From Methanobacteriota archaeon (GTDB lineage Archaea > Thermoplasmatota > Thermoplasmata > RBG-16-68-12 > JAFNFQ01), in contig JAFNFQ010000029.1 of the NCBI GenBank assembly GCA_017885655.1, positions 2,061 through 26,060 of the forward strand: a DNA stretch of 24,000 nt. The letters run 5' to 3'. Shown one piece after another: positions 4,731 through 19,578 of the stretch. The notes under the pieces were generated by a model. The model did no database searches and had not been told where the DNA came from. It worked only from the letters and a program-made list of their open reading frames with translations. The position numbers and the translations under genes were made by a program. The number at the start of each line of letters is the position of its first letter. Position 1 is the first letter of the stretch.

Positions 4731-5089
4731 CATCCCGTCACAGCTATGCCGTCCAGTCCCCAACGCTCCAGGTTGGACAGCAACCGCCAGCGCAGGGGCC
4801 AGGGCACGTACACCCTTGTCTCGCCACGTTCGTGCGAGTCCCGAAGCTTCTCTCTCGTTTCCTCAAGGTCGACCTCTTTCTCCAAGAGGATCAGGACCCG
4901 AACCGTTCGAGAACCCTTTGCCGCCCTGATGATCGGGGAGCCTGCTCCCTCCTTTGCCCGGATGGCGGTAGCCCGGAACTCGATGAATCCTTCCTTCTCC
5001 AATAGAGCCTGGCAGCGGCTGACCGCTTTCATTCTGTCTGCATCCGACACGACTCCCTTTCTGGGCATGATCATCTGCATCGCTTGCAT
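4727..5089 (-). CDS. Hypothetical 120-aa protein, paralog of 4150-4509
   Basis: It shares an ordered set of blocks with the 4150-4509 product. These are VSD(A/S)D near the N-terminus, (E/Q)KEG, P(I/D)I, E.E, ETRE(K/Q)L(R/E)D, V(Y/T)(V/I)P and ER(W)G(L/I). The segment LLEKEGFIEFRA...SPIIRAAKGSRTVRVLILLEKE resembles the Hjc N-terminal half (LLEK.GF.V.R...D...G....IE.K) but lacks the Asp. Start ATG 5089 is chosen because it lies ~27 nt from the TATA centre (leaderless) and gives a 120-aa product, against 119 aa for the paralog. ATGs at 5098, 5080, 5074 and 5068 remain possible. Confidence 0.55.
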   Translation of the reverse strand: MQAMQMIMPRKGVVSDADRMKAVSRCQALLEKEGFIEFRATAIRAKEGAGSPIIRAAKGSRTVRVLILLEKEVDLEETREKLRDSHERGETRVYVPWPLRWRLLSNLERWGLDGIAVTGW

Positions 5090-5113
5090 GGTTCTCATGT
5101 TCGATTCGAGACC

Positions 5114-5139
5114 TTTAATACCGCAGTGGAACTGTCCAC
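5114..5139. promoter_or_regulatory. Shared divergent promoter: TTTAATA box plus near-palindrome GTGGAACTGTCCAC
   Basis: TTTAATA lies at 5114-5120 and GTGGAACTGTCCAC at 5126-5139, a 12/14 match to GTGGACATGTCCAC with the outer arms intact. For the + gene (ATG 5144) the palindrome sits between the TATA box and the start codon. For the - gene (ATG 5089) it sits just upstream of the TATA box, as in the other two promoters. Confidence 0.55.
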
Positions 5140-5143
5140 CGCG

Positions 5144-7726
5144 ATGGCTCTGGAGGTGACCGTGGCGGAGCGGTGCCTGCTCTACTTGCTCGACAGGGTG
5201 GGAATTGCCAAGAGCGATCCGGCGTCCGAACAGCTCGTACAAGACCGCATCGCGGAGGTCATTGGTGCCCGTCGCCCGCACGTGTCGAGGGCTCTCAACC
5301 AGCTGGCGAGAGCAGGGCATGTTGACATCGAGAAGGTCCACGTACGAGGGAAGAACAGGAGGGTGCTGGGGTACTTCCTCACTCCGAATGGGGTGCGCAA
5401 GGCAGGAGGGATCAAGAGACTGGTCGAAGAGAAGAAGGTGACCGTAGTCGACCTCGAGGGCAATGAGAAGAGGCTCAGGCTCTTCGAGGCTAGGTCGCTT
5501 CTGGCGCGGAAGCCAAGGCTACTTCAGCTCGCCATGGGCGTGCAGGACGGTCGAATCGACCTGCGCCGCTTCCTGAACCTGGATAAGCGCATGCAAGGCG
5601 GGATGATGTACGACGTTGAAGAGGTGATCTCGGTCCCCCACTTCTCTGGGCGGGAAGATACCCTCGCCCGCCTCGACGGTTTCATGAAGGAGCCGAGTAG
5701 ACGGGGATTCCTGCTCGTGGGCCTGCCGGGCGTCGGCAAGACCGCTCTGGCGTCAAAGTGGGTGGCGGGAGTCAAGGGCCAAATGCATGTTCTGTGGCGT
5801 CGCGTGCAGCCCGGGAGGACGGCCAGCGACACCCTGCGCGACCTGGCAAGAGTCCTCAATGCCGCCGGCAGGCCTGCCCTCATGGAGTCTCTGCAGCAGC
5901 CTGCACAAGATTGGAGGGCGAGGTCGGTCGAGCTCCTCAAGCGGGACCTCCGTGGGATAGTCGTCCTTCTGGTTCTCGACAATGCTCACCTGGCTTCCGA
6001 GGACTTGGGGACACTTGTGTCCGAGATACTCGCAATCGAACCTGCCAACGCAAGTATCAAGGTAATCCTTCTCGGGCGAGAGCGTTGCCAGTTCATCAGG
6101 GCGGAGGACATCGCGAGGGGGAGAGTCCTCCAAGAGGAATTGCCGGATCTCTCCCAGTCTGAAGCTGAACGCATGATGGCGGCGCTGGAAGTGGACAGGG
6201 CGCGTCGAGGTCGCATTTGGGAAGTGTGCGGCGGGCACCCGCTTTCGATCGAACTAGCTGCAGAAGGTGGTGTGTCGGTCGACGCAGTCAAGGAAACATC
6301 CGCATCAAGACTGGCGCAAGAAGTGTTGTCAAGGCTAGATCCCAGGCTGCGCGAGGCCCTGGTCTTCGCCTCTGTCTTCGAGGGTTCAATTCCATTGAGC
6401 CTGCTCGGCGGTCACGGTCGCGAACTGGTCAGGTTGTGCCTCCTTCGGGACGCCGGGAACGGCCGGGCGAGCATGCACGACCTGGTAAGAGCAGCTACGG
6501 TCCGGGGTGCGTCGTCGCAAGAACTCGGAGCCTTCCACAGGCGTGCCGGTGAGTTCCTGGCGAGCAGCAAGGAACCCGGAGAAGCACTGGAAGCCGCTAG
6601 GCATTTCGTGGAATCGGAGGCGTATCCGGAAGCCGAGATCCTTGTCTCCACGAGGGGGCAGGAATTCATCGATGCGGGACTCGCCGAGATGCTGCTCTCG
6701 ACGCTTGAGAAATTGGCATGGACATCGAAGACCACCAAGAGGGAGCCCCCGCTGTCGTTGCTCCGGGCGCAAGCCTTGTTCGCGCTCGGCCGGTGGGCGG
6801 CTGCGTCCAAGGCGTACGAGCTCTGTTCGGGATTCAGGGATGGGCGGATCGCGGCGGAGGCGCTGCTGGGACAGGGCAAGGCGGAGGTTCAGAGACACTC
6901 GCCTCTGGCAGGCAATCACTTGAAGAGGGCGAAACAGAGGTTGGAGCGACTCGGTGCCCTCAGACTGCTTGTGGAGGCAGAGTACTGGGTTGGCGGACAA
7001 CTCGAGGAGACAGGAAGGATCGATGGCGCGCGCGAGGCCTACGAACGGGGCAGAGCGGTTGCCATACAGGTTGGCGATAGACGGTGGGAAGGCCTTTGCA
7101 CCTACGGAATCGGCGGCATCCTCTCGCTCAAGAAGGACTATGCTGGCGCGGCCGAAGAGGACGAGGAGGCGCTGCGACTGCTCGAACGTGACGGTCAGCG
7201 ATTGGAAATCGCCAAGGTGTGCAGTGGATTGGGCGGGGAGTTGATGGAGCTCGGGCGGTATGAGGAATCCGAGAAGTATCTCATGCGCGCAATCGCAGAA
7301 TCACGGGCGACCGGGGCAGTTGGTGTGCTCGCATCCGCGCTGTTCAACTTGGCGGGTCTCCGGAACGAACTGGGCCGAGGTGACGAGGCGATTCCCCTGT
7401 TCACGGAGGCTCTTTCCGAGTTTGACGCGCAGGATAAGTCTTATGAGGCCGCCCTGTGCGCTGCGTGGCTCGCTTCCTATTCATGGATGGCGGGACACGA
7501 GGAGATCGGAAATGAATACGCACGGCGGGCTCGACGGTTGCTTTCCAGGACATTGGAGCCTGCACTCCGGGTCAGGGCGTTGCGCACCTTCGCTCGCGCC
7601 GCGCTGAAGGCGGGCAATAAGGTCACCGCTCGAAAGCATCTTCGTGAAGCCCTCGCCGCCGCCAGAAAGGCCCATCTGGGAAGGGGCGGGTCCGATCTGA
7701 CGGCGGAACTGGACAAGTTGGGCTAG
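5144..7726 (+). CDS. STAND-class NTPase with N-terminal winged-helix DNA-binding domain and C-terminal TPR array (860 aa)
   Basis: The N-terminal wHTH is LLYLLDRVG...DRIAEVIGARRPHVSRALNQLARAGHVDIEKVHVRGKNRRVLGYFLTPNG (MarR/ArsR-like). Walker A is GLPGVGKT. Walker B is VVLLVLDNAH. The NB-ARC-type GxP motif is CGGHPLSIELAA. The C-terminal ~400 aa are Ala/Leu/Glu/Arg-rich helical repeats of TPR type. Start ATG 5144 is preferred over the listed TTG 5084, because the TATA box at 5114-5120 lies inside that extension. Confidence 0.85.
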   Translation: MALEVTVAERCLLYLLDRVGIAKSDPASEQLVQDRIAEVIGARRPHVSRALNQLARAGHVDIEKVHVRGKNRRVLGYFLTPNGVRKAGGIKRLVEEKKVTVVDLEGNEKRLRLFEARSLLARKPRLLQLAMGVQDGRIDLRRFLNLDKRMQGGMMYDVEEVISVPHFSGREDTLARLDGFMKEPSRRGFLLVGLPGVGKTALASKWVAGVKGQMHVLWRRVQPGRTASDTLRDLARVLNAAGRPALMESLQQPAQDWRARSVELLKRDLRGIVVLLVLDNAHLASEDLGTLVSEILAIEPANASIKVILLGRERCQFIRAEDIARGRVLQEELPDLSQSEAERMMAALEVDRARRGRIWEVCGGHPLSIELAAEGGVSVDAVKETSASRLAQEVLSRLDPRLREALVFASVFEGSIPLSLLGGHGRELVRLCLLRDAGNGRASMHDLVRAATVRGASSQELGAFHRRAGEFLASSKEPGEALEAARHFVESEAYPEAEILVSTRGQEFIDAGLAEMLLSTLEKLAWTSKTTKREPPLSLLRAQALFALGRWAAASKAYELCSGFRDGRIAAEALLGQGKAEVQRHSPLAGNHLKRAKQRLERLGALRLLVEAEYWVGGQLEETGRIDGAREAYERGRAVAIQVGDRRWEGLCTYGIGGILSLKKDYAGAAEEDEEALRLLERDGQRLEIAKVCSGLGGELMELGRYEESEKYLMRAIAESRATGAVGVLASALFNLAGLRNELGRGDEAIPLFTEALSEFDAQDKSYEAALCAAWLASYSWMAGHEEIGNEYARRARRLLSRTLEPALRVRALRTFARAALKAGNKVTARKHLREALAAARKAHLGRGGSDLTAELDKLG

Positions 7727-11977: not shown

Positions 11978-12284
11978 GATGTTACTTTACTACCCCCGCG
12001 CGCACATAAAATACTTTGCCGCATGGATCCAAGTTGGGCTGCAATGAATTCGGTTTCTGCTCTTTCCCGTGCGTAAGGAATGAACGCGGACTCAGACGCT
12101 AGGTGAGTCAAGATGATTGTCCCGAACAGAAAGGACGGCGGCATCGAACGGGGAAGCTTGGAGGGGCGTGCCCAATTTGAGCTTATCTCGCGACAACCGG
12201 CGCGAGCCACCTCAAGGCTGGTGCCGGCCTTCGCACGACCGTGCTGGACTTCCGCTCGTCTGGATCCTGTCTCCGCGCGACCGC

Positions 12285-12347
12285 GCGGAACGTCCGAACA
12301 ACCGTGCGGAACCTCCAATCGTACGCGCGGAACGTCCGGACGGAAGA
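12285..12347 (+). repeat. Three 21-bp-phased GCGGAAC(G/C)TCC units inside a 738-bp non-coding tract
   Basis: GCGGAAC starts at 12285, 12306 and 12327, each step exactly 21 bp. A second phased pair, AAACAGAC(T/G)GCGA, starts at 12540 and 12561. CGCGCGACCG/GCGCGGAAC motifs recur at ~12274 and ~12490. Confidence 0.6.
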
Positions 12348-12715
12348 AACCGCCCTTTTCGACATCAGAGGGGCTGTTCGAGCGGTCGCCGGCAACCGCC
12401 GGACGACTATCCGCGACCTCCGAACGACCGGATTTCGGCCGGTTTCGGCCCAAAAATGCCCGTGACAGCCGCCCGACGCCTCCGCACAGACGCGCGGAAC
12501 CTCCGCGCGACCGAGCGGCGACAGGAACCAGCGCGCCGGAAACAGACTGCGATAGGAAGAAAACAGACGGCGAACCGTCGGCACCGGCGGTCGGTCAGCC
12601 GGGACACGCCATCTGCTGCTCGATTTCCGCCTCCGTGTGGTTTCTCCTCGCCGAGGGCGGGGCGGCGTCCGCGCATGATCATCCAGATAACAGATGGAAT
12701 CTGGTCGGCACTCGA

Positions 12716-15184
12716 TCAACCGTGGATCACGACGGAAATGGTTGTGGTCGAGTTCCCGCCATCGTCGTCGCGGACCGTGAGGCTCACCGCATAGGTCCCG
12801 GGTCCGGGGAAAGCGTGGCTGACCTCCGCCATGGCGGTGAACGGGAAGGTACCGCCTGGGCTCTCTGGCGGGTCCGGCCCGACGCCGTCGTTGAACACGG
12901 TCGAGTTCTGGGGCGTGCTGTTATCCCCAAAGTCCCACTCGAACGTGATGTCGTCGCTTCCTGGGTCCACTGCCGCCGCCTTGAAGCGAACCGCCAGCCT
13001 CGCCACATACGGCGTGAGGTCCACCTCCCACACGTAGGTCCCGGGGTGGTTGACGTTGAACGTGTGGTGTATCCTGACTGGCTCTTCTCCCGGAGACCCG
13101 ACCATGATCCACACGGGGTTCGCGCCATTCGGCTGCCCGTTGATCGGGTCGTCCTCCGGCGTGTACACGATCCTCGCGGAGTAGTTGGCCGAGAGGAACA
13201 GATTCGTCACGTTCGTTGACATCGCCTGATCATCGGGAGAGCCCGGCATCCTGACGATGCGCAGATGGCCGAGCACCGTGTCGTTGATGAAGAAGATGCC
13301 CTCGACGTCGTGCCACTTCTCTCCCGCAACGCGCAGCGTGAACATCCCTGGACGATTGACCTGGACGATCCGCGCGGTCGGCGCGACATTCCTGACGATG
13401 ACCGCTGTCTCATACACCACAAAGGCGCCGTTCTCATCTGTCACAGTGAGGCGGACCGTGTAGTTGCCGTCATCCCCGTACAGGAAGTCGGCGGTGCTGG
13501 TGGCGCTCATCGGCGATCCCGTTGCTGGGAATGTCTCATCCAGGGTGGGCCCGAGTTCGAACTCCCAATGGAATGAGAGGCTGTCGTTGCCCGGATCTGT
13601 TGCGGTGGCGGTCATGCTGCCGGGCGATCCCTCATCAACATAGACCGGTCCGAAGGGGATAATCGTCGGAGGAACATTCTGAATGTGGATCGAGAATGCG
13701 ACCCCGAGGCCACCGCCATCGTCATCCTGAACCGTCAACTCCCCGGCATAGTCCCCGTCTTGCGGGTAGAATGCCGTGAATGTGGATGTGGCGGCGAACG
13801 GGAATGCCCCGAGCGGGCTCTGCGGCGGGTCAGGGCCGGCCCCATCGTTGTAGAACACCCTCGACTCCACGTCGCCGTTTCCGAAGTCCACGGTGAAATG
13901 GAGGTCATCGCTCCCCGGGTCCTGTGCGGTTGCTGTCATGTCGACGTGCGACCCCTCGTCTGCAGTGGCTGGGAATGAAAGTGCGATGATTGTCGGCGGG
14001 AGGTTCTGCACGACCGCGAGCTTCCCTCCGAGCATCCCGACACCGCCATCGTCGTCGGCCGCGATGATCTCGAGCGGGAAGCTGCCGTCATCTCCGTAAG
14101 TCCGCGTGGCGGTCACCGCCTGTCCGCTCGGGTTGAACCACGTGCCGATGAATTCCGGCGGGAGGCCGTCTCCCCAATCCACCGTGACATTCACCGGATC
14201 TGCTCCTGGGTCGGTGACGCTGAACTGCAGCGTGATCATACCGCCCTCTGAAGAATCCGTGACTGAGCCGAAGGTTATTGACGGGGGGACATTCTTCACA
14301 CCAACGTCGGCCAACGTGGAATTCTGCAGTTTGCCATCGGAGACCGTGAGCTTCGCTCTTCCCTTGAAGTCGTCAGGATATGTGTGGCTGACCGTGGCGT
14401 TCATCGTCGTGATGTCCGTGGTGCCGTCGTTCTCGAAGTCCCATGAGTAGGTGAGCGCATCGCCATCGGGGTCATAGGAACCGCTCGCGTTGAACAGGAT
14501 CGGAGACCCCTCGGTGCCGATGTACGGCCCGCCGCCGTTCGCCACAGGAGGCTTGTTGCATGCGCTCCCAATCGTGACCTGCCCAGTCATCGAGAGCGGG
14601 ATATGGGTCCCGTCACCGTCGACCCAGCGCTGGTAGCGCGCCGGGTCCGGGCCATAGTGTGTCAGGTCCACCTTCAGGGTCCACTCGCTGCTCGTCGGCA
14701 GCGGTCCAAGAGCGCCGCCGTCCGTGTTGGTGAAGTAATGGAACTGGCCCTGGGGATTGCGCGCCAGGTTGAACTCCCCGGGGTCGTCGGAGACCGCCAC
14801 TGAAGCTCCTGCCGGGATTCCCTGTAGCTCAACATCCGTCAGCGCATCAGGCGTTCCGCTCCCGTCGACGTTGAAGTGGAATACGAAGTACAGCTTGCTG
14901 CTCCCCGTGTCAAGATAGAGATAGAGCACGCTCACGTAGGCCTCAACGAACGGCGTGTGTGCGCTATCGCTGTAGTAGTTGTAGAACGAGCTGACTGTCT
15001 GCGCTCGCTCGACGGGCTCTACTGGATGGTCCGACCCGCCCTGGGTGACCTCGAACAAGCAGGGCAGCGTCACCGTCTGAGGCGACGGCGGCTGCGGCAT
15101 GTTGTAGCCAGAAATGGAATTCACGAAGAGGCACCCGACCAAAAGTGCGGCAATAATCCTCACGGTCCCCGCCTCCAGACCCAT
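12716..15184 (-). CDS. Secreted multi-PKD-domain surface protein (822 aa)
   Basis: PKD signatures recur: FNASGSYDPDGDALTYSWDFENDGT, WDFGDNSTP, FTVDFGNGD, VTVDWGDG, and repeated NVPPTI linkers. Start is ATG 15184 (MGLEAGTVRIIAALLVGCLFVNSISG, a signal peptide). An AT-rich box lies ~30 nt upstream (complement of ~15207-15224). The longer listed N-terminus lies upstream of that box. Confidence 0.8.
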   Translation of the reverse strand: MGLEAGTVRIIAALLVGCLFVNSISGYNMPQPPSPQTVTLPCLFEVTQGGSDHPVEPVERAQTVSSFYNYYSDSAHTPFVEAYVSVLYLYLDTGSSKLYFVFHFNVDGSGTPDALTDVELQGIPAGASVAVSDDPGEFNLARNPQGQFHYFTNTDGGALGPLPTSSEWTLKVDLTHYGPDPARYQRWVDGDGTHIPLSMTGQVTIGSACNKPPVANGGGPYIGTEGSPILFNASGSYDPDGDALTYSWDFENDGTTDITTMNATVSHTYPDDFKGRAKLTVSDGKLQNSTLADVGVKNVPPSITFGSVTDSSEGGMITLQFSVTDPGADPVNVTVDWGDGLPPEFIGTWFNPSGQAVTATRTYGDDGSFPLEIIAADDDGGVGMLGGKLAVVQNLPPTIIALSFPATADEGSHVDMTATAQDPGSDDLHFTVDFGNGDVESRVFYNDGAGPDPPQSPLGAFPFAATSTFTAFYPQDGDYAGELTVQDDDGGGLGVAFSIHIQNVPPTIIPFGPVYVDEGSPGSMTATATDPGNDSLSFHWEFELGPTLDETFPATGSPMSATSTADFLYGDDGNYTVRLTVTDENGAFVVYETAVIVRNVAPTARIVQVNRPGMFTLRVAGEKWHDVEGIFFINDTVLGHLRIVRMPGSPDDQAMSTNVTNLFLSANYSARIVYTPEDDPINGQPNGANPVWIMVGSPGEEPVRIHHTFNVNHPGTYVWEVDLTPYVARLAVRFKAAAVDPGSDDITFEWDFGDNSTPQNSTVFNDGVGPDPPESPGGTFPFTAMAEVSHAFPGPGTYAVSLTVRDDDGGNSTTTISVVIHG

Positions 15185-15426
15185 GAGTCCAGATTCGCTG
15201 GCAAGCTCATAAGTCTTTTGTAGAGCGTGGGGCGCGGTGGTCTGCATGCTGGGTAGTGGTGCAGAATGAAGGATCGCGAGATTGCGGGGAGGAATTCGCA
15301 CCGGCGAGAGAGATTCCCTGCTTCCTCATGATGAAGTTGAGGAAAGGCACCGCAAGGTCGAATAATCCCCGGTCCAAGTAGAAAGCGTGGCTCCCGCGTC
15401 AGTCCTCTTGTTCACCTGATCGCAGC

Positions 15427-15603
15427 CTAGTCCTTTGCCGCCTTCTTTCTCGCATTGCCTTCGAGCGATATCCCCTTCACCCTGACGTCCCCTTGCCTGC
15501 AATCCTCTTCGAGGTATGTGACGTAGCCCGAGCCGACGTTCAAGTGCACCACGTGCACCTTCTTGTTCACCTTGATCAGGGGCTTCGTCGCCTTCTTCTT
15601 CAT
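15427..15603 (-). CDS. Small basic hypothetical protein (58 aa)
   Basis: MKKKATKPLIKVNKKVHVVHLNVGSGYVTYLEEDCRQGDVRVKGISLEGNARKKAAKD. It has an ATG start and GC3-rich codon usage like neighbouring real genes. A TATA-like TTTAAGTA (complement of 15639-15646) lies ~36-43 nt upstream. It has Lys-rich termini and a beta-strand-looking core. I recognise no family. Confidence 0.45.
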   Translation of the reverse strand: MKKKATKPLIKVNKKVHVVHLNVGSGYVTYLEEDCRQGDVRVKGISLEGNARKKAAKD

Positions 15604-15723
15604 CTTGGCTTCCTTGCGCTCCAATACCCACGGGGGCTACTTAAAGGGTCTGCCGAGAATATCAAGCGTTGTCGTGCACGAATGCGAATTGGACTTCGAT
15701 GCATCCGGAGCAAGCTCGGGCGA

Positions 15724-16266
15724 GTGCGGTGGAAGCCGCTCCAGTGTGGGGGGAGCAGCTCCGCGTGTGGATGGAGGTCGGACGAGCGTGGGGCGAGCTG
15801 CTCCACATGTGGGCGGAGTCGCTCCGAGTGTGGAGGAAGTTCGTCCGCGTGTGGATGGATTCTCACCAAGTGTGGACGGAGTCTCGGAACACTCGGACCG
15901 AGCTTCGAAACATCGTCGCGGATGCGGAAAACTGCACCGGAAGCCCCGGAGAGTGTGGAGCGAGCCGCTCCGTGTGTGGACGGAGTTCCTCCGCACGTGG
16001 ATGAAGCCGGTCCGCGTGTGGACGGGTCCTCTCCACGTGTGGACCGAGGCCGGGCGAGTGTGGGCGGAGTCTCTCCGCGTGTGGACGGAGGCGGAGCGAG
16101 TGTGGACGGAGCCCGGGAACATTCTCGCGTATATACGCGCAAGTATCGATATCCCCGGAAAACGCGGACGGAGTCCGTGCGCGTGTGGACGGAGTGTCTC
16201 CACATGTGGACGGAGGCGGAGCGCGTGTGGACGGAGTCCGTGCGAGTGTGGTTGAATGGGCCCCTG
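15724..16266 (+). repeat. Nested tandem array: ~20 units of 21 bp (consensus GTGTGGACGGAG-N4/5-CTCCGC) inside a ~230-bp higher-order repeat
   Basis: GTGTGG-type cores start at 15744, 15765, 15786, 15807, 15828, 15849 and 15870. A second block starts at 15953, 15974, 15995, 16016, 16037, 16058, 16079 and 16100. A third block starts at (16162), 16183, 16204, 16225 and 16246. Every step within a block is exactly 21 bp. The phase jumps by 83 bp (4x21-1) at both interruptions. The two interrupting segments are homologous to each other (GGAACA(C/T)T..., (G/C)CGGAAAAC...). Confidence 0.85.
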
Positions 16267-16509
16267 TATGGGGTGGGATGCGCACCGATGGAGGATTCCT
16301 CGATCCCAACGGCCTCCGATTGGCCCTCGTCGCTTTCGCATAAGGCGATTATCCCATTCGCATGATGCAAGATTCTTCCGACCAGCGTCCGGATGAAGAT
16401 CATATCCACCACCCACTCCGCTCAATCGACCATCCGGGTCCGTGCATAGCCCTGCGTGTGAAACTGCTAAATAGAGATTCGACAGGTAGACATCCGCTTG
16501 CATCCGCGA

Positions 16510-19500
16510 ATGTCTCGCGCTGGTCAGCCATATGATGCGACTAGGCATGCGCACCCAGGCGGCATCCTGGCCGTGTCGGCATCGGTGGCCTTCATCCTCG
16601 TGTCGAGCCTGACAGCAGTCCCGCTGCTGCAGACCGCCCCCCCTTCGGGCGATGGCGGGAGCAGGGCAATGTCCCAGGAGACGGTCGTGCGGAGCCTTTC
16701 CGGAGACTACGTCATCGAGAACGCCGGTCAAGTCGCGGACGGTGTAAGATTTTATTCGATGGGGAATCCCTCGGCTGGATTCCGCGATGACGGCGTGGTG
16801 TTCGTACTGTCTGACGAGATGAAGGCGCAAGATGGGACGGAGAGTGATCAGGTACTCCAGCACGCCCGCCCAGCCCTTTTCGAAGCGGTGCAACGAACCG
16901 TCTCGGTCGCCTACCTCCTCCGCTTCGAGGGGGAGAACGAGGTCAGGCCGGTCGGCAGAGACCGCCTGCCTTTCGATAGCAACTTCTTCCTTGGAGACGA
17001 TTCGGCCAGGTGGAAGGTTAATGTCCCCAGTTACGAGGAGGTCGTTTACGAGAATCTCTATGATGGCATCGACCTCGTCTACCGCCCGATCGAGCACGGA
17101 GTGAAATACGAGTTCCTCCTGAGTCCCGGGGCGGACCCGCGCTCGATCAGCCTGAGGTATGAGGGAATCGAGTCTCTTGAAGTCAGAGCGGACGGAATAG
17201 CGGTTGCGACAACATCAGGTGAAATCCTGGACTCCGCACCTTACTCGTTCCAAGAAGGCGGGGCTGAAGTCCATTGCGTTTTCTCGTTCCGCAGTCCCAG
17301 CTCCTATGGCTTCGACTGCGCCGGATGGGACGGGACTTCGCTCCTGACCATCGACCCTCTGATCTACTCCACTTTCCTTGGCGGGAGCGGCTGGGACCAA
17401 GGTTACTCCATCAAGGTAGACAGCAATGGAAACGCCTATGTGACCGGACAGACTCGGTCAGCCAATTTCCCCACGACGCCCGGTGCATACGACACCACTC
17501 GCGGCGGAACGGACGACGCCTACGTGACGAAGCTGAGCTCAGACGGGACATCGCTGGTCTATTCCACGTATGTTGGCGGAGGCAGTACTGATGTTGGTCT
17601 CTCCATAGCCCTGGACGCGAATGGCAACGCGTGCATAGCGGGTGAAACCCTGTCCTCTGACTTCCCGACCACTCCTGGCGCCTTCAGCAGGACTTATCAT
17701 GGTAAGTCCGATGGATTCGTCACGAAGCTGAATTCGGATGGAAACGCTCTCCTGTTCTCTACTTACATCGGCGGGGCGGAAAACGACACCTGGCCAACTG
17801 TGGCGGTCGATACCGCGGATAATGTCTATGTTGCAGGCATCACCAAATCAGTGGATTTCCCCGTCACACCAGGAGCGTTCGACGTCTCGTACAACTCTGG
17901 TGGTTCGGACGCGTTCGCTATGAAGCTGAACTCGACAGGCATGGCCCTGATCTATTCCACCTTCCTTGGCGGGAACGATGCGGACTTTGCCTACTCGATT
18001 GCGGTGGACACCGCCATGAACGCGTATGTGACAGGGGGCGCCTGGTCTGTCGACTTCCCGACCACGCCAAGCGCCTTCGATAGATTGCAGAGCGGCTCTT
18101 GCGATGTCTTCGTCACGAAGATTAGCGTCACAGGCGGTTCCCTCGACTATTCCACCTTCCTAGGGGGAGGCGGTTTCGACGTCGGGCTCAGCATCGCGGT
18201 CGATTCCTCGGGGCTGGCCTTCGTGACCGGGTCGATAGACTCGCTGAACTTCCCCGTGACCCCCGGCGCGTACGACTCCTCTTTCAACGGAGGTCTCTAC
18301 GATGCCTTCATCGCGAAGCTGAATTCGGGCGGGAGCTCGCTGCTATACTCGACCTATTTTGGCGGTGGGAACGGTGAGTTCGGGAACGCCATCGCGGTCG
18401 ATTCGGCGGGGAACGCCTACATAACGGGCGGTACCGACTCGAATGACCTCCCAGTCACACCTGGTGCTTTTGATACATCTTACAATGACCTCATGGACGC
18501 ATTCGTCACGGAGATGAACGGGACTGGATCCCTCGCCAACTCCACCTACCTTGGCGGGAGCGGCACAGAAGGATACCTGAACTTCCTGACCGTCGACCCT
18601 ATCGGTGAAATCTACGTGACCGGCATCACGAACTCCACGGATTTCCCGATCACGCCAGGCGCCTTCGACACGACAGTCGATCCCAACAGGGATGGTTATG
18701 TCACGAAACTGGGCCCACTGTTCCCGGATCTCGCGGTCGGTCAGCGGGACATAGCATTCGACCCGCCAGGGCCCGTGATGGTCGGCACAACGGTCACGAT
18801 AAACGCGACCATCGATAACCTTGGGTCATCTGATGCCATCGGTGTCATTGTCAGGTTCCACGATGGTCCGCCGTCCGGCTCGAACCAGATAGGATCCGAC
18901 CAGGTCATAGCGTTTCTCCCGGCTCCGGGCGGCACTGGGCTCGCCTCGGTTGTGTGGATTGCGGACCCGCCCGGGATGCACAATATTTGTGTAGTCGCAG
19001 ACCCTGATAATAGAATAGCCGAAAGCAATGAAGCTAATAATCTGGCCTGCCGCAGATTCCCGGTTCTGACAACTTACACTCTCCCGCTCACCCCTGGCCA
19101 CCGGTTCGTGTCGTTCCCGCTCAAGCCTGTCCCTGATGACGTCGCGTCAGTGCTGAGTTCGCTTTCCGGTTGCTACGACTACATCCGCTGGTATGATGCG
19201 CTCGATCCGAGCGACCATTGGAAGTCCTACGAGCCCGCAAGGGGATACAACGACATAGAGCGACTGGATAACACCATGGGCTTCTGGATGAACGTCACAA
19301 TCGCTTGCGATTTCATTGTGACCGGCTACCCCGAGAGACTCACCATGCTCTCCCTTTACGCCGGCTGGAACATGGTCGGCTATCCGTCTTTCAACACGTC
19401 TTACACCGTGGCGGACCTCAAGGCCGCAATCGGCCTTGCTGGCGTGATCGTCGAGACGTTCGATGCGAGCGCTGCCCCGTACTATCTGCAGAGAGCGCCG

Positions 19501-19578
19501 GACAGATACACGTTTGCGGCGGGAGAGGGCTACTGGATATTCGTGCCATCTGATGTCGACTGGGCAGTCTATGGTTGA
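16510..19578 (+). CDS. Surface protein with N-terminal conserved region, SBBP-type beta-propeller repeats, CARDB-like domain and C-terminal domain (1022 aa)
   Basis: The N-terminal anchor is GILAVSASVAFILVSSLTAV. About 8 repeats follow of YSTFLGG...D.G..IAVD..GNAYVTG.T.S.DFPTTPGAFD....G..DAFVTKLN..G..L. Next comes DLAV...GTTVTINATIDNLGSSDA (CARDB-like). The C-terminus has GWNMVGYP and GEGYWIFV. Start is ATG 16510 (the listed TTG 16498 is possible). CTAAATAG box at 16467-16474. Confidence 0.85.
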   Translation: MSRAGQPYDATRHAHPGGILAVSASVAFILVSSLTAVPLLQTAPPSGDGGSRAMSQETVVRSLSGDYVIENAGQVADGVRFYSMGNPSAGFRDDGVVFVLSDEMKAQDGTESDQVLQHARPALFEAVQRTVSVAYLLRFEGENEVRPVGRDRLPFDSNFFLGDDSARWKVNVPSYEEVVYENLYDGIDLVYRPIEHGVKYEFLLSPGADPRSISLRYEGIESLEVRADGIAVATTSGEILDSAPYSFQEGGAEVHCVFSFRSPSSYGFDCAGWDGTSLLTIDPLIYSTFLGGSGWDQGYSIKVDSNGNAYVTGQTRSANFPTTPGAYDTTRGGTDDAYVTKLSSDGTSLVYSTYVGGGSTDVGLSIALDANGNACIAGETLSSDFPTTPGAFSRTYHGKSDGFVTKLNSDGNALLFSTYIGGAENDTWPTVAVDTADNVYVAGITKSVDFPVTPGAFDVSYNSGGSDAFAMKLNSTGMALIYSTFLGGNDADFAYSIAVDTAMNAYVTGGAWSVDFPTTPSAFDRLQSGSCDVFVTKISVTGGSLDYSTFLGGGGFDVGLSIAVDSSGLAFVTGSIDSLNFPVTPGAYDSSFNGGLYDAFIAKLNSGGSSLLYSTYFGGGNGEFGNAIAVDSAGNAYITGGTDSNDLPVTPGAFDTSYNDLMDAFVTEMNGTGSLANSTYLGGSGTEGYLNFLTVDPIGEIYVTGITNSTDFPITPGAFDTTVDPNRDGYVTKLGPLFPDLAVGQRDIAFDPPGPVMVGTTVTINATIDNLGSSDAIGVIVRFHDGPPSGSNQIGSDQVIAFLPAPGGTGLASVVWIADPPGMHNICVVADPDNRIAESNEANNLACRRFPVLTTYTLPLTPGHRFVSFPLKPVPDDVASVLSSLSGCYDYIRWYDALDPSDHWKSYEPARGYNDIERLDNTMGFWMNVTIACDFIVTGYPERLTMLSLYAGWNMVGYPSFNTSYTVADLKAAIGLAGVIVETFDASAAPYYLQRAPDRYTFAAGEGYWIFVPSDVDWAVYG

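Follow-up and report, generated by a model that had tools for sequence, protein, structure and literature searches.

Short DNA units repeated head to tail at regular spacing are known from several prokaryotic systems. The iterons of the plasmids F, R6K and pPS10, the sites of Rep initiators, are direct repeats of 17-22 bp in which a conserved core is flanked by variable sequence; they lie on one helical face in three to seven copies. The centromere parC of plasmid R1 is composed of two sets of five 11-bp repeats which flank a promoter and are bound by ParR, sopC of the F plasmid consists of 12 repeats of 43 bp bound by SopB, and the omega repressor of pSM19035 binds arrays of heptads. The repetitive extragenic palindromic sequences and bacterial interspersed mosaic elements (REP/BIME), which come with RAYT Y1 transposases, are lineage-specific and extragenic; their short, often palindromic units stand head to tail at regular spacing, form mosaics of several unit types, vary in copy number and are known or suspected docking sites for proteins. 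Among archaea, tandem repeats have reportedly been described from the Borg elements of Methanoperedens by Schoelmerich et al. in 2023. Here, we discuss a degenerate array of 21-bp units from a Thermoplasmata archaeon (assembly GCA_017885655.1, contig JAFNFQ010000029.1, positions 2,061 to 26,060), the whole stretch of 24,000 nucleotides that was analysed being referred to as the window. The array is non-coding and belongs to a genus-restricted class of arrays with a common period, and we tentatively read it as a docking platform for protein.

All coordinates without prefix are window positions; G000 denotes the genome of this window, which lies on contig C29 there, and G001 that of a sister species. 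The element extends over about 600 bp (15681-16287) and is composed of roughly 23 head-to-tail units of 21 bp in a single orientation, about 20 of which keep a 12-bp core, GTGTGGAcGGAG. An earlier note on this DNA had described a strictly phased array of some 20 units in three blocks, and this description holds. Tandem Repeats Finder (TRF) calls a period of 21 bp, and also of 42 bp, at 15744-15854, 15953-16111 and 16166-16251, a print of the sequence in 21-nt register places seven, eight and five strong units in the blocks (20 in all), and self-match at lag 21 amounts to 0.523 over 15700-16290 versus 0.285 ± 0.018 in 1000 shuffles (z = 13), with values of 0.26-0.27 at lags 20 and 22. The units are degenerate, matching each other at 60-75% of positions according to TRF.

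Read from left to right on the plus strand, the register print shows three degenerate in-phase units with the heads ATGCG, ATGCA and GTGCGG at the left edge (15681-15743), block A with seven units (15744-15890), spacer 1 of 62 bp holding three variant units (15891-15952), block B with eight units (15953-16120), spacer 2 (16121-16161), and block C with five units and a 1-nt slip after the first of them (16162-16266). The element closes with a terminal degenerate unit, TATGGGGTGGGATG (16267-16287), where the similarity to a paralogous copy in the sister genome stops. Within blocks, the core-to-core step is exactly 21 bp, and between blocks it is 83 bp (A to B, 4 × 21 − 1) and 63 + 20 bp (B to C), in agreement with the 83-bp offset noted before at two interruptions; the two spacers hence hold the 21-bp register minus 1 nt. 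The further claim that the interrupting segments are homologous stands for their ends, both spacers beginning GGAAC-A-YTC and finishing CCCCGGA-R-A, but not firmly for their interiors, which are weakly alike (26/62 positions ungapped, alignment score about 1.2 standard deviations above shuffles); read in register, both are variant units ending GGAAC, GAAAC or GAAAAC. Likewise, the degenerate left copy that had been placed at about 15640-15722 corresponds to the units at 15681-15743, whereas 15640-15680 is not repeat and includes the TATA-like box that belongs to the small gene next to the array. The 230-bp higher-order repeat is real, since self-match rises to 0.554 at lag 230 and to 0.576 at lag 209, as compared with about 0.27 at lags 210 and 231, which makes it probable that the array has grown by duplication of multi-unit blocks.

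Information is unevenly distributed over the unit. Positions 1-12, the core, carry 1.1-2.0 bits each, except for position 8 with only 0.5 bits, while the linker (positions 13-18) is down to 0.3-0.8 bits per position and the CCG tail reaches about 0.8-1.3. A conserved core does therefore alternate with linkers that vary, an arrangement also seen where binding sites for proteins are arrayed. GTGG is invariant in 20/20 strong units and is followed by A in 15/20 and then by C in 12/20. The motif CGGAG in the second half of the unit is inverted (CTCCG) in some units and direct in others; a 3-5-bp dyad of shifting register is present in about 12/19 units, the remaining ones carrying the half-motif in direct orientation. 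CCACATGTGG, which had been seen in two units, is located at 15803-15812 and 16199-16208. The GC content is 0.61-0.68 across the array, with strong G over C skew on one strand (+0.2 to +0.27), and the sole AT-rich spot is the 6-bp TATATA at 16130-16135, inside a perfect palindrome, CGCGTATATACGCG (16126-16139), that is enclosed by spacer 2. Judged from its letters, this palindrome is possibly a two-way TATA box; the host encodes the TATA-binding protein (TBP), and in G000 the region −50 to −18 of long open reading frames (ORFs) is 8.9-fold enriched in TATATA. Similar modules lie inside two other arrays of the genome, TTCTCG..TATATACG in that at C26:47860 and GAATATAC in that at C4:168142; an internal TATATAC-like module is limited to such a sub-group and was dismissed as a general feature.

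The array is conserved at its locus among close relatives. The sister genome G001 carries an orthologue of 87% identity and, at an unrelated locus beside an OST-HTH/LOTUS-domain gene, a second, paralogous copy of 78% identity (G001:C9). In pattern scans of public genome and metagenome collections, these two copies and four metagenome contigs of 75-94% identity were the only hits, three of the contigs being further orthologues and one matching the second-locus copy of G001; the remaining matches were unrelated. Among the latter, the metagenome contig Ga0163179_10118263 (L049), of 49% GC, contains GTGTGGACGG several times within 200 bp, in direct and inverted orientation, and probably represents an independent cluster of binding sites. 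The array was not found in the 77 other genomes of the order, and BLAST searches against plasmids and phages as well as a pattern scan of viral contigs returned nothing similar. Among the orthologues, block A comprises about 3-7, block B 7-8 and block C 5-6 units, the latter with six units in G001, L042 and the paralogue versus five in G000. Indels among the five orthologues are mostly multiples of 21 bp and 1-nt slips are rare, bearing out that copy number varies by whole units. Each orthologous unit retains its own linker across species, which indicates that the units are old and are not being homogenised. Taken together with the synteny of the window contig, which is chromosomal, with a 170-kb contig of the sister species, the array is a chromosomal element that is vertically inherited within one uncultured Thermoplasmata genus and changes mainly by gain and loss of whole units.

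Divergence within the array has to be read with care. Relative to G001, divergence is 2-7% in blocks B and C and in the right flank, whereas it is 18-23% at four-fold sites of the flanking genes. From this contrast (0.02-0.07 versus 0.23 at four-fold sites) purifying selection was at first concluded, a conclusion that has been withdrawn, because the low values are explained by an identity tract. This tract (about 16000-16950, 97-99% identity) includes the first 100 codons of the DUF7948 gene to the right of the array, with 0/64 four-fold changes, whereas in the rest of that gene 9-46% of four-fold sites differ from G001; it marks a recent event of recombination or gene conversion that reached over part of the array and the start of the gene. 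Between orthologues, substitutions amount to 55/877 in cores versus 62/656 in linkers, a rate about 1.5-fold lower in cores (odds ratio 0.64, p = 0.025, the lineages not being independent). The uniformity of the cores next to decayed linkers among old units suggests that the core is under constraint; had duplicated units decayed neutrally, erosion would be even over the 21 positions, and the information retained in the core counts for constraint. In comparison with the paralogue, spacer 1 is the best-conserved part (7/62 differences, 0.11, versus 83/378, 0.22, in the units), a further point for constraint; in the paralogue, AAATGCGGAC units stand at 21-bp steps where G000 has the degenerate units of 15681-15743.

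The present array is one member of a class with an unusual unifying feature, namely a common period without a common sequence. Over the 2.5-Mb assembly, TRF returns 77 rows of period 21 and 74 rows of period 12, and windows with more than 50% self-match account for 4886 positions at lag 21 versus 160-401 at lags 15-27, a 12-30-fold excess. Merging yields 35 regions of 190-840 bp each and at least eight unit families; most regions are gaps in which several frames are open only over the repeat, and a few weak ones inside large genes may be coding. The unit sequences differ among arrays, most of them containing a palindrome such as CTCCTACGTGTAGGAG, CCAGAC-N4-GTCTGG, CCGCTG-N4-CAGCGG or TCCGCGG-A-CCGCGGA; GGGACAATYG is also found, and further members are the CTCCTAC family, a TCCGCATTTTCCC array and the array at hel308. 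In BLAST comparisons, families have 2-7 dispersed copies of 72-96% identity with sharp ends, one of them counting seven copies and another four. Unit types recur in several arrays as parts of mosaics: GGAACAT/GGAACAC units in the two spacers described above resemble units of the arrays at C4:168142 and on C86, and GCGGACGGAGTCC and CCTCCTAC units occur together in the C38 array. Two candidates for a feature common to all arrays were rejected, AATATCAAG as not specific and TATGGRGTGG as an end motif of three arrays only, which are the present one and those at C4:168596 and C33:3567. Outside the array, the present core occurs at chance level in G000, with two exact and 12 one-mismatch copies (14 matches versus 18.4 expected).

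In 240 kb sampled from the sister genome, lag 21 stands out again, with five regions, and about 620 kb from five further genera of the order do not show the excess; the class is thus restricted to one genus. The array-holding gaps are divergent in 10, tandem in eight and convergent in two cases, as compared with an expected ratio of 1:2:1 (p = 0.027, orientations being based on rough ORF calls). Many arrays flank large surface-protein genes, others adjoin hel308, primase, TBP-paralogue or Ras-like GTPase genes, and they are often located at contig ends. A full-text literature search returned nothing on such arrays. As to TBP itself, several gene copies or fragments are present on contigs C35, C75, C76 and C86, most of them at contig ends; one copy (C75:30554-30940) has a 21-bp array of the seven-copy family immediately upstream, and a fragment (C86:2-127) is about 2.2 kb away from the array at C86:2308-2743. 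A link of the 21-nt unit to Argonaute was considered and discarded, given that a Piwi domain is present in G001 only: G000 and 19 further genomes of the order yielded no counterpart of the Piwi-domain (Argonaute-like) gene G001:C8:28853-29479 (L143).

Between the two species, four loci were sampled for turnover, of which two were kept, one was replaced and one is an insertion. The present array and that at C29:32293 are kept in G001. Upstream of hel308, both species have 21-bp arrays between orthologous flanks of 84-93% identity, with unrelated unit families, CCGCTGAACACAGCGG in G000 (C32:24245-24569) and AACATGTTGCG in G001 (G001:C2:137692-137880, L145:293-481). The insertion (C5:20156-21072, L075:2157-3073) is 917 bp long and holds another 21-bp repeat in 11 units. 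It is bounded by 11-bp terminal inverted repeats (TIRs), GGCGTTGTCAA and TTGACAACGCC, and by a 10-bp target duplication, GAATCGGGCG, and its site is empty in the sister species (G001:C4:50747-50764, L144); one frame is open throughout this array, where a heptad-repeat ORF is possible. In addition, the right flank of the G001:C9 paralogue matches G000 C4:168858-171228, beside the array at C4:168142-168560 (L080). The latter is composed of about 20 phased 21-bp units of the CGGAACAATCG type with the core CGGRACAATCG, and its layout resembles that of the present array, with the internal GAATATAC element and the same TATGGAGTGG end (end motif CATATGGAGTGGAC). Together with the hel308-upstream gap, this makes two loci that hold arrays of different families in G000 and G001.

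The reading that we favour, at somewhat less than even confidence, is that the array acts at the DNA level as a phased docking platform with many sites for protein. Given that 21 bp correspond to two helical turns, all cores would share one helical face along some 600 bp, and a sequence-specific protein would bind these phased cores cooperatively, in the form of a filament or a wrap. Such a platform would begin about 35 bp from the TATA box of the leftward unit composed of the small gene and a PKD-domain surface protein gene, would enclose the TATA-like palindrome between blocks B and C, and would end about 200 bp from the DUF7948 promoter. Because it would surround the palindrome and abut two promoters, its most probable output would be an effect on promoter access or on the local chromatin at the divergent promoters. 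The reading builds on the one-face arrangement of the cores, on the phase that is kept across the spacers and on the occurrence of CGGAG in direct or inverted orientation, a tolerance which suits the recognition of double-stranded DNA and destroys a hairpin. The contrast between uniform cores and decayed linkers, the fixed 21-bp pitch over families with different, mostly palindromic cores, the two loci at which both species have an array but of another family, and the bias to promoter-bearing gaps (10:8:2) count in its favour as well. Similar to parC, sopC and the omega sites, phased blocks of direct repeats enclose a promoter-like element, a sub-motif occurs directly or inverted, as in the omega heptads, and function would depend on many sites jointly, not on single ones; the differences are that the unit length is another, that an adjacent partition ATPase or centromere-binding gene is missing, and that the arrays are chromosomal, occupy multiple loci and fall into many families.

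Several observations weigh against a docking platform. A partner protein for the array was not found, and the 58-aa protein encoded next to it is spread over the whole order, where arrays are absent. The core occurs at chance frequency elsewhere in the genome, so that an ordinary regulon is not what it marks. The difference in rate between cores and linkers is modest and disappears in the comparisons with G001 and with the paralogue, and that blocks B and C differ so little from G001 does not testify to selection, being due to the recombination tract. Moreover, dispersed copies of the class have sharp ends, as selfish DNA does, one array sits within an insertion with TIRs, a target duplication and an empty site in the sister genome, and the class as a whole is confined to one genus.

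These last points lead to the main rival, which we consider possible, though on the unlikely side, and according to which the array is a selfish or neutral minisatellite. It would belong to a lineage-specific family, either REP/BIME-like or borne by miniature inverted-repeat transposable elements, the core would be kept solely as the substrate of an amplifying or mobilising machinery that also sets the 21-bp step, and a host function would be lacking. Beyond the sharp boundaries of several multi-copy families in unrelated contexts and the C5 element, this explanation is in line with the frequent position of arrays at contig ends, the variation in unit number among close relatives, the presence of the class in both genomes of the genus and not in the 620 kb from other genera, the lack of single-site core copies beyond chance, and the resemblance of the spacers to relic units of other families (GGAACAT/GGAACAA type). 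It accords less well with the present array itself, which is single copy in G000 and occupies the same locus in all five orthologous sequences, which shows neither TIRs nor a target duplication at its ends (as judged from the paralogue comparison, which is not exhaustive), for whose locus no empty site is known, and whose cores stayed uniform while the linkers decayed.

The comparison with REP/BIME is instructive in this respect. With these elements the arrays have in common their extragenic, lineage-bound occurrence, short units, often with a palindrome, in regular head-to-tail series, mosaics of unit types, a variable copy number and a known or suspected role in protein docking. A RAYT/Y1 transposase (PF01797) was not found in G000 or G001, that is, in either genome of the genus, whereas three further genomes of the order and six controls do have it. 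While BIME units alternate, all units here point the same way, and the period is locked at exactly 21 bp across unrelated unit sequences. The present core is not dispersed as single copies (14 matches versus 18.4 expected), the same unit at many extragenic sites being the hallmark of REPs. REPs favour 3' ends and convergent gaps, and the arrays discussed here show the opposite, being enriched in promoter-bearing gaps and depleted in convergent ones; finally, the host is an archaeon, whereas REP/BIME are bacterial. The Borg repeats and other prokaryotic non-coding minisatellites offer a likeness in that they, too, are intergenic tandem repeats, archaeal in the case of Borgs, which change by whole units. 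Borg repeats are, however, near-perfect, young and of many unit lengths, in contrast to the old, degenerate units with a conserved core and a single fixed period found here. It should be kept in mind that the docking and the selfish readings are not mutually exclusive.

A broader proposal, which we regard as rather improbable, would account for the whole class by a single two-turn ruler. One lineage-specific DNA-binding or polymerising protein, or an amplification machinery, would impose the 21-bp pitch on arrays that bear palindromes but are unrelated in sequence, at 35 or more loci, most of them close to promoters, and the arrays would be exchangeable cassettes, in keeping with the two loci that hold another family in the sister species. 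The class would then constitute an undescribed archaeal chromatin or promoter-control element, of which the present array would be a typical working copy.

It is doubtful that the array works as RNA, transcribed from the embedded TATATA palindrome or as part of a long DUF7948 leader, with short hairpins or GGA-rich motifs that bind or titrate an RNA-binding protein. In favour of it, TATATA could plausibly serve as a TATA box, one strand has a marked excess of G over C, and the junction of units, UCCRCRUGUGGA, can pair with itself on the plus strand once G-U pairs are admitted; the paralogue, moreover, adjoins the OST-HTH/LOTUS-domain gene. Both strands also fold better than shuffles (z = −4.1 and −3.8); these scores of about four standard deviations stem from the short dyads in the units and do not single out a strand. 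Covariation lends a conserved fold no support, the RNAalifold term being unfavourable (+4.1; six sequences, four of them close, hence of low power), and Rfam gave nothing relevant for the array at the gathering threshold or at E values up to 1. About one third of the units lack an internal dyad, several with the second half-motif direct instead of inverted, and a two-helical-turn phase kept across spacers would be needless for RNA.

Quite unlikely, too, is a connection with the winged helix-turn-helix (wHTH) STAND regulator encoded 8.5 kb upstream (5084-7726), by which the array would serve as a platform or sink of half-sites for an oligomer, by analogy with MalT on arrays of MalT boxes. The palindromic operator GTGGAC-AT-GTCCAC, present at three promoters in the window, and the unit core both contain GTGGAC, which is found in 9/20 strong units; the chance of a 12-mer containing a given 6-mer is below 1%, and the central ACATGT of two unit junctions equals the operator centre. 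Yet only GTGG is invariant, A and C following in 15/20 and 12/20 units, and the next base of the operator, A, is G in 17/20. The conserved GT before and GGAG after the hexamer are without counterpart in the operator flanks, compared with those of the operator, the half-sites of the junction palindrome are everted, the array does not extend beyond one genus, and a regulator of this kind is missing next to the paralogue. With the GTGGACATGTCCAC operator, the overlap, called short and possibly coincidental in the earlier note, accordingly stays weak.

The array is very unlikely to represent replicon iterons, a chromosomal origin or a partition centromere. The iteron comparison drawn before was apt as far as geometry is concerned, the direct repeats being within the 17-22-bp range and in helical phase on one face, and the blocks may be seen to flank a promoter-like palindrome, by analogy with parC of plasmid R1. 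As an analogy to a replicon it fails. Pfam searches with all large ORFs of the window revealed no Rep gene, ParA/ParB/ParR, SegA/B and Orc1/Cdc6 genes are absent from the window, and partition ATPase or centromere-binding genes are found neither there nor beside the paralogue. The genome has two Orc1/Cdc6 genes, with Cdc6_C matches only on contigs C27 and C42, on which ground an origin on the window's contig was rejected. At 61-68% GC, the array offers no AT-rich unwinding region, nor does it have a DnaA/ORB box, and its 20 or more copies exceed the three to seven of plasmid iterons. It lies on a chromosomal, syntenic contig, nothing similar was seen in plasmid, phage or viral collections, and a replicon model leaves unexplained the approximately 35 analogous arrays per genome with other unit sequences.

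That the array is non-coding, as had been claimed, follows from several lines of evidence. Long ORFs cross it in several frames on both strands, but the blocks lie in different reading frames owing to the 83- and 20-bp offsets, and orthologues differ by ±1-nt indels. Substitutions by unit position folded by three give 16:19:20 (L042) and 36:25:22 (paralogue), that is, no codon periodicity, whereas the neighbouring gene has a clear third-position excess (substitution rates of 0.086:0.063:0.222 by codon position). Neither Pfam, searched with the long ORFs over the array, nor Rfam gave a match, and a small ORF starting at the conserved ATGGAGTGG was dropped since its products are unrelated among the copies. 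A heptad-repeat protein, for which the long open frames on both strands and the correspondence of 21 bp to seven codons could be adduced, is scarcely credible in view of these frame shifts, indels, substitution counts and Pfam results, the longest frame moreover being antisense to the well-supported DUF7948 gene.

With regard to the genomic setting, the view that the array separates divergent surface-protein genes needs a small correction. The flanking genes are divergent, but the immediate left neighbour is a gene for a small, Lys-rich protein of 58 aa (15427-15603, minus strand), behind which lies the gene of the PKD-domain surface protein (12716-15301, minus strand; 861 aa; Pfam PKD_4 3.5e-47, PKD 3.9e-29) which comes second in the leftward transcription unit. 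In front of the small gene, the sequence reads CTTTAAG (15640-15646, minus strand), a TATA-like box; the same kind of box (CTTTAAG, CTTTAAT) is carried by two of the three operator promoters examined in the window. On the right, a unique region without counterpart in the paralogue (16288-16497) contains a TAAATA box at 16468-16473, TAAATA being among the most enriched upstream hexamers in G000, and leads to the gene of a surface protein with DUF7948, SBBP beta-propeller and CARDB matches in Pfam (16498-19578, plus strand; start probably ATG 16510).

The 58-aa protein is encoded once each in G000 and G001 and has single-copy homologues in 70/79 genomes of the order, with short upstream regions in other genera. 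Since it is present order-wide, where arrays are absent, its gene is a conserved core gene and not a private partner of the array; as a candidate binder, this basic neighbour was also rejected because the second array lacks a paralogue of it. Pfam did not assign the protein to a family. It has a conserved core, HxNVGSGYVxYLEED, and may be an undescribed small nucleic-acid-binding or ribosome-associated protein. Among all large ORFs of the window, Pfam identified a P-type ATPase, a DNA alkylation repair enzyme, a Ras-like GTPase, the STAND regulator, a UFM1-type cassette and Zn-ribbon, PKD, DUF7948 and Kelch proteins. In a further long stretch without genes (11978-12715, 740 bp), TRF calls short 21-bp repeats (12278-12342 and 12479-12518), which are below the threshold of the genome scan.

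New in this analysis are the anatomy of the present array and the survey of its relatives, the figures for the excess of the 21-bp period, the finding that the class is confined to one genus and falls into families, the exchange of arrays for others at fixed loci, and the caveat of the recombination tract. In practical terms, long stop-free frames over such arrays are not genes, which should be borne in mind in annotation, and the arrays break assemblies, several of them being located at contig ends. If they are selfish, they would be an archaeal counterpart of REP/BIME without the known transposase, and the fixed two-turn step would require a mechanistic explanation. If they are docking platforms, they would amount to a large, lineage-specific layer of archaeal promoter or chromatin control which operates via many phased sites instead of single operators. 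Either way, the fixed 21-bp pitch over unrelated sequences is a concrete and testable oddity of this lineage.

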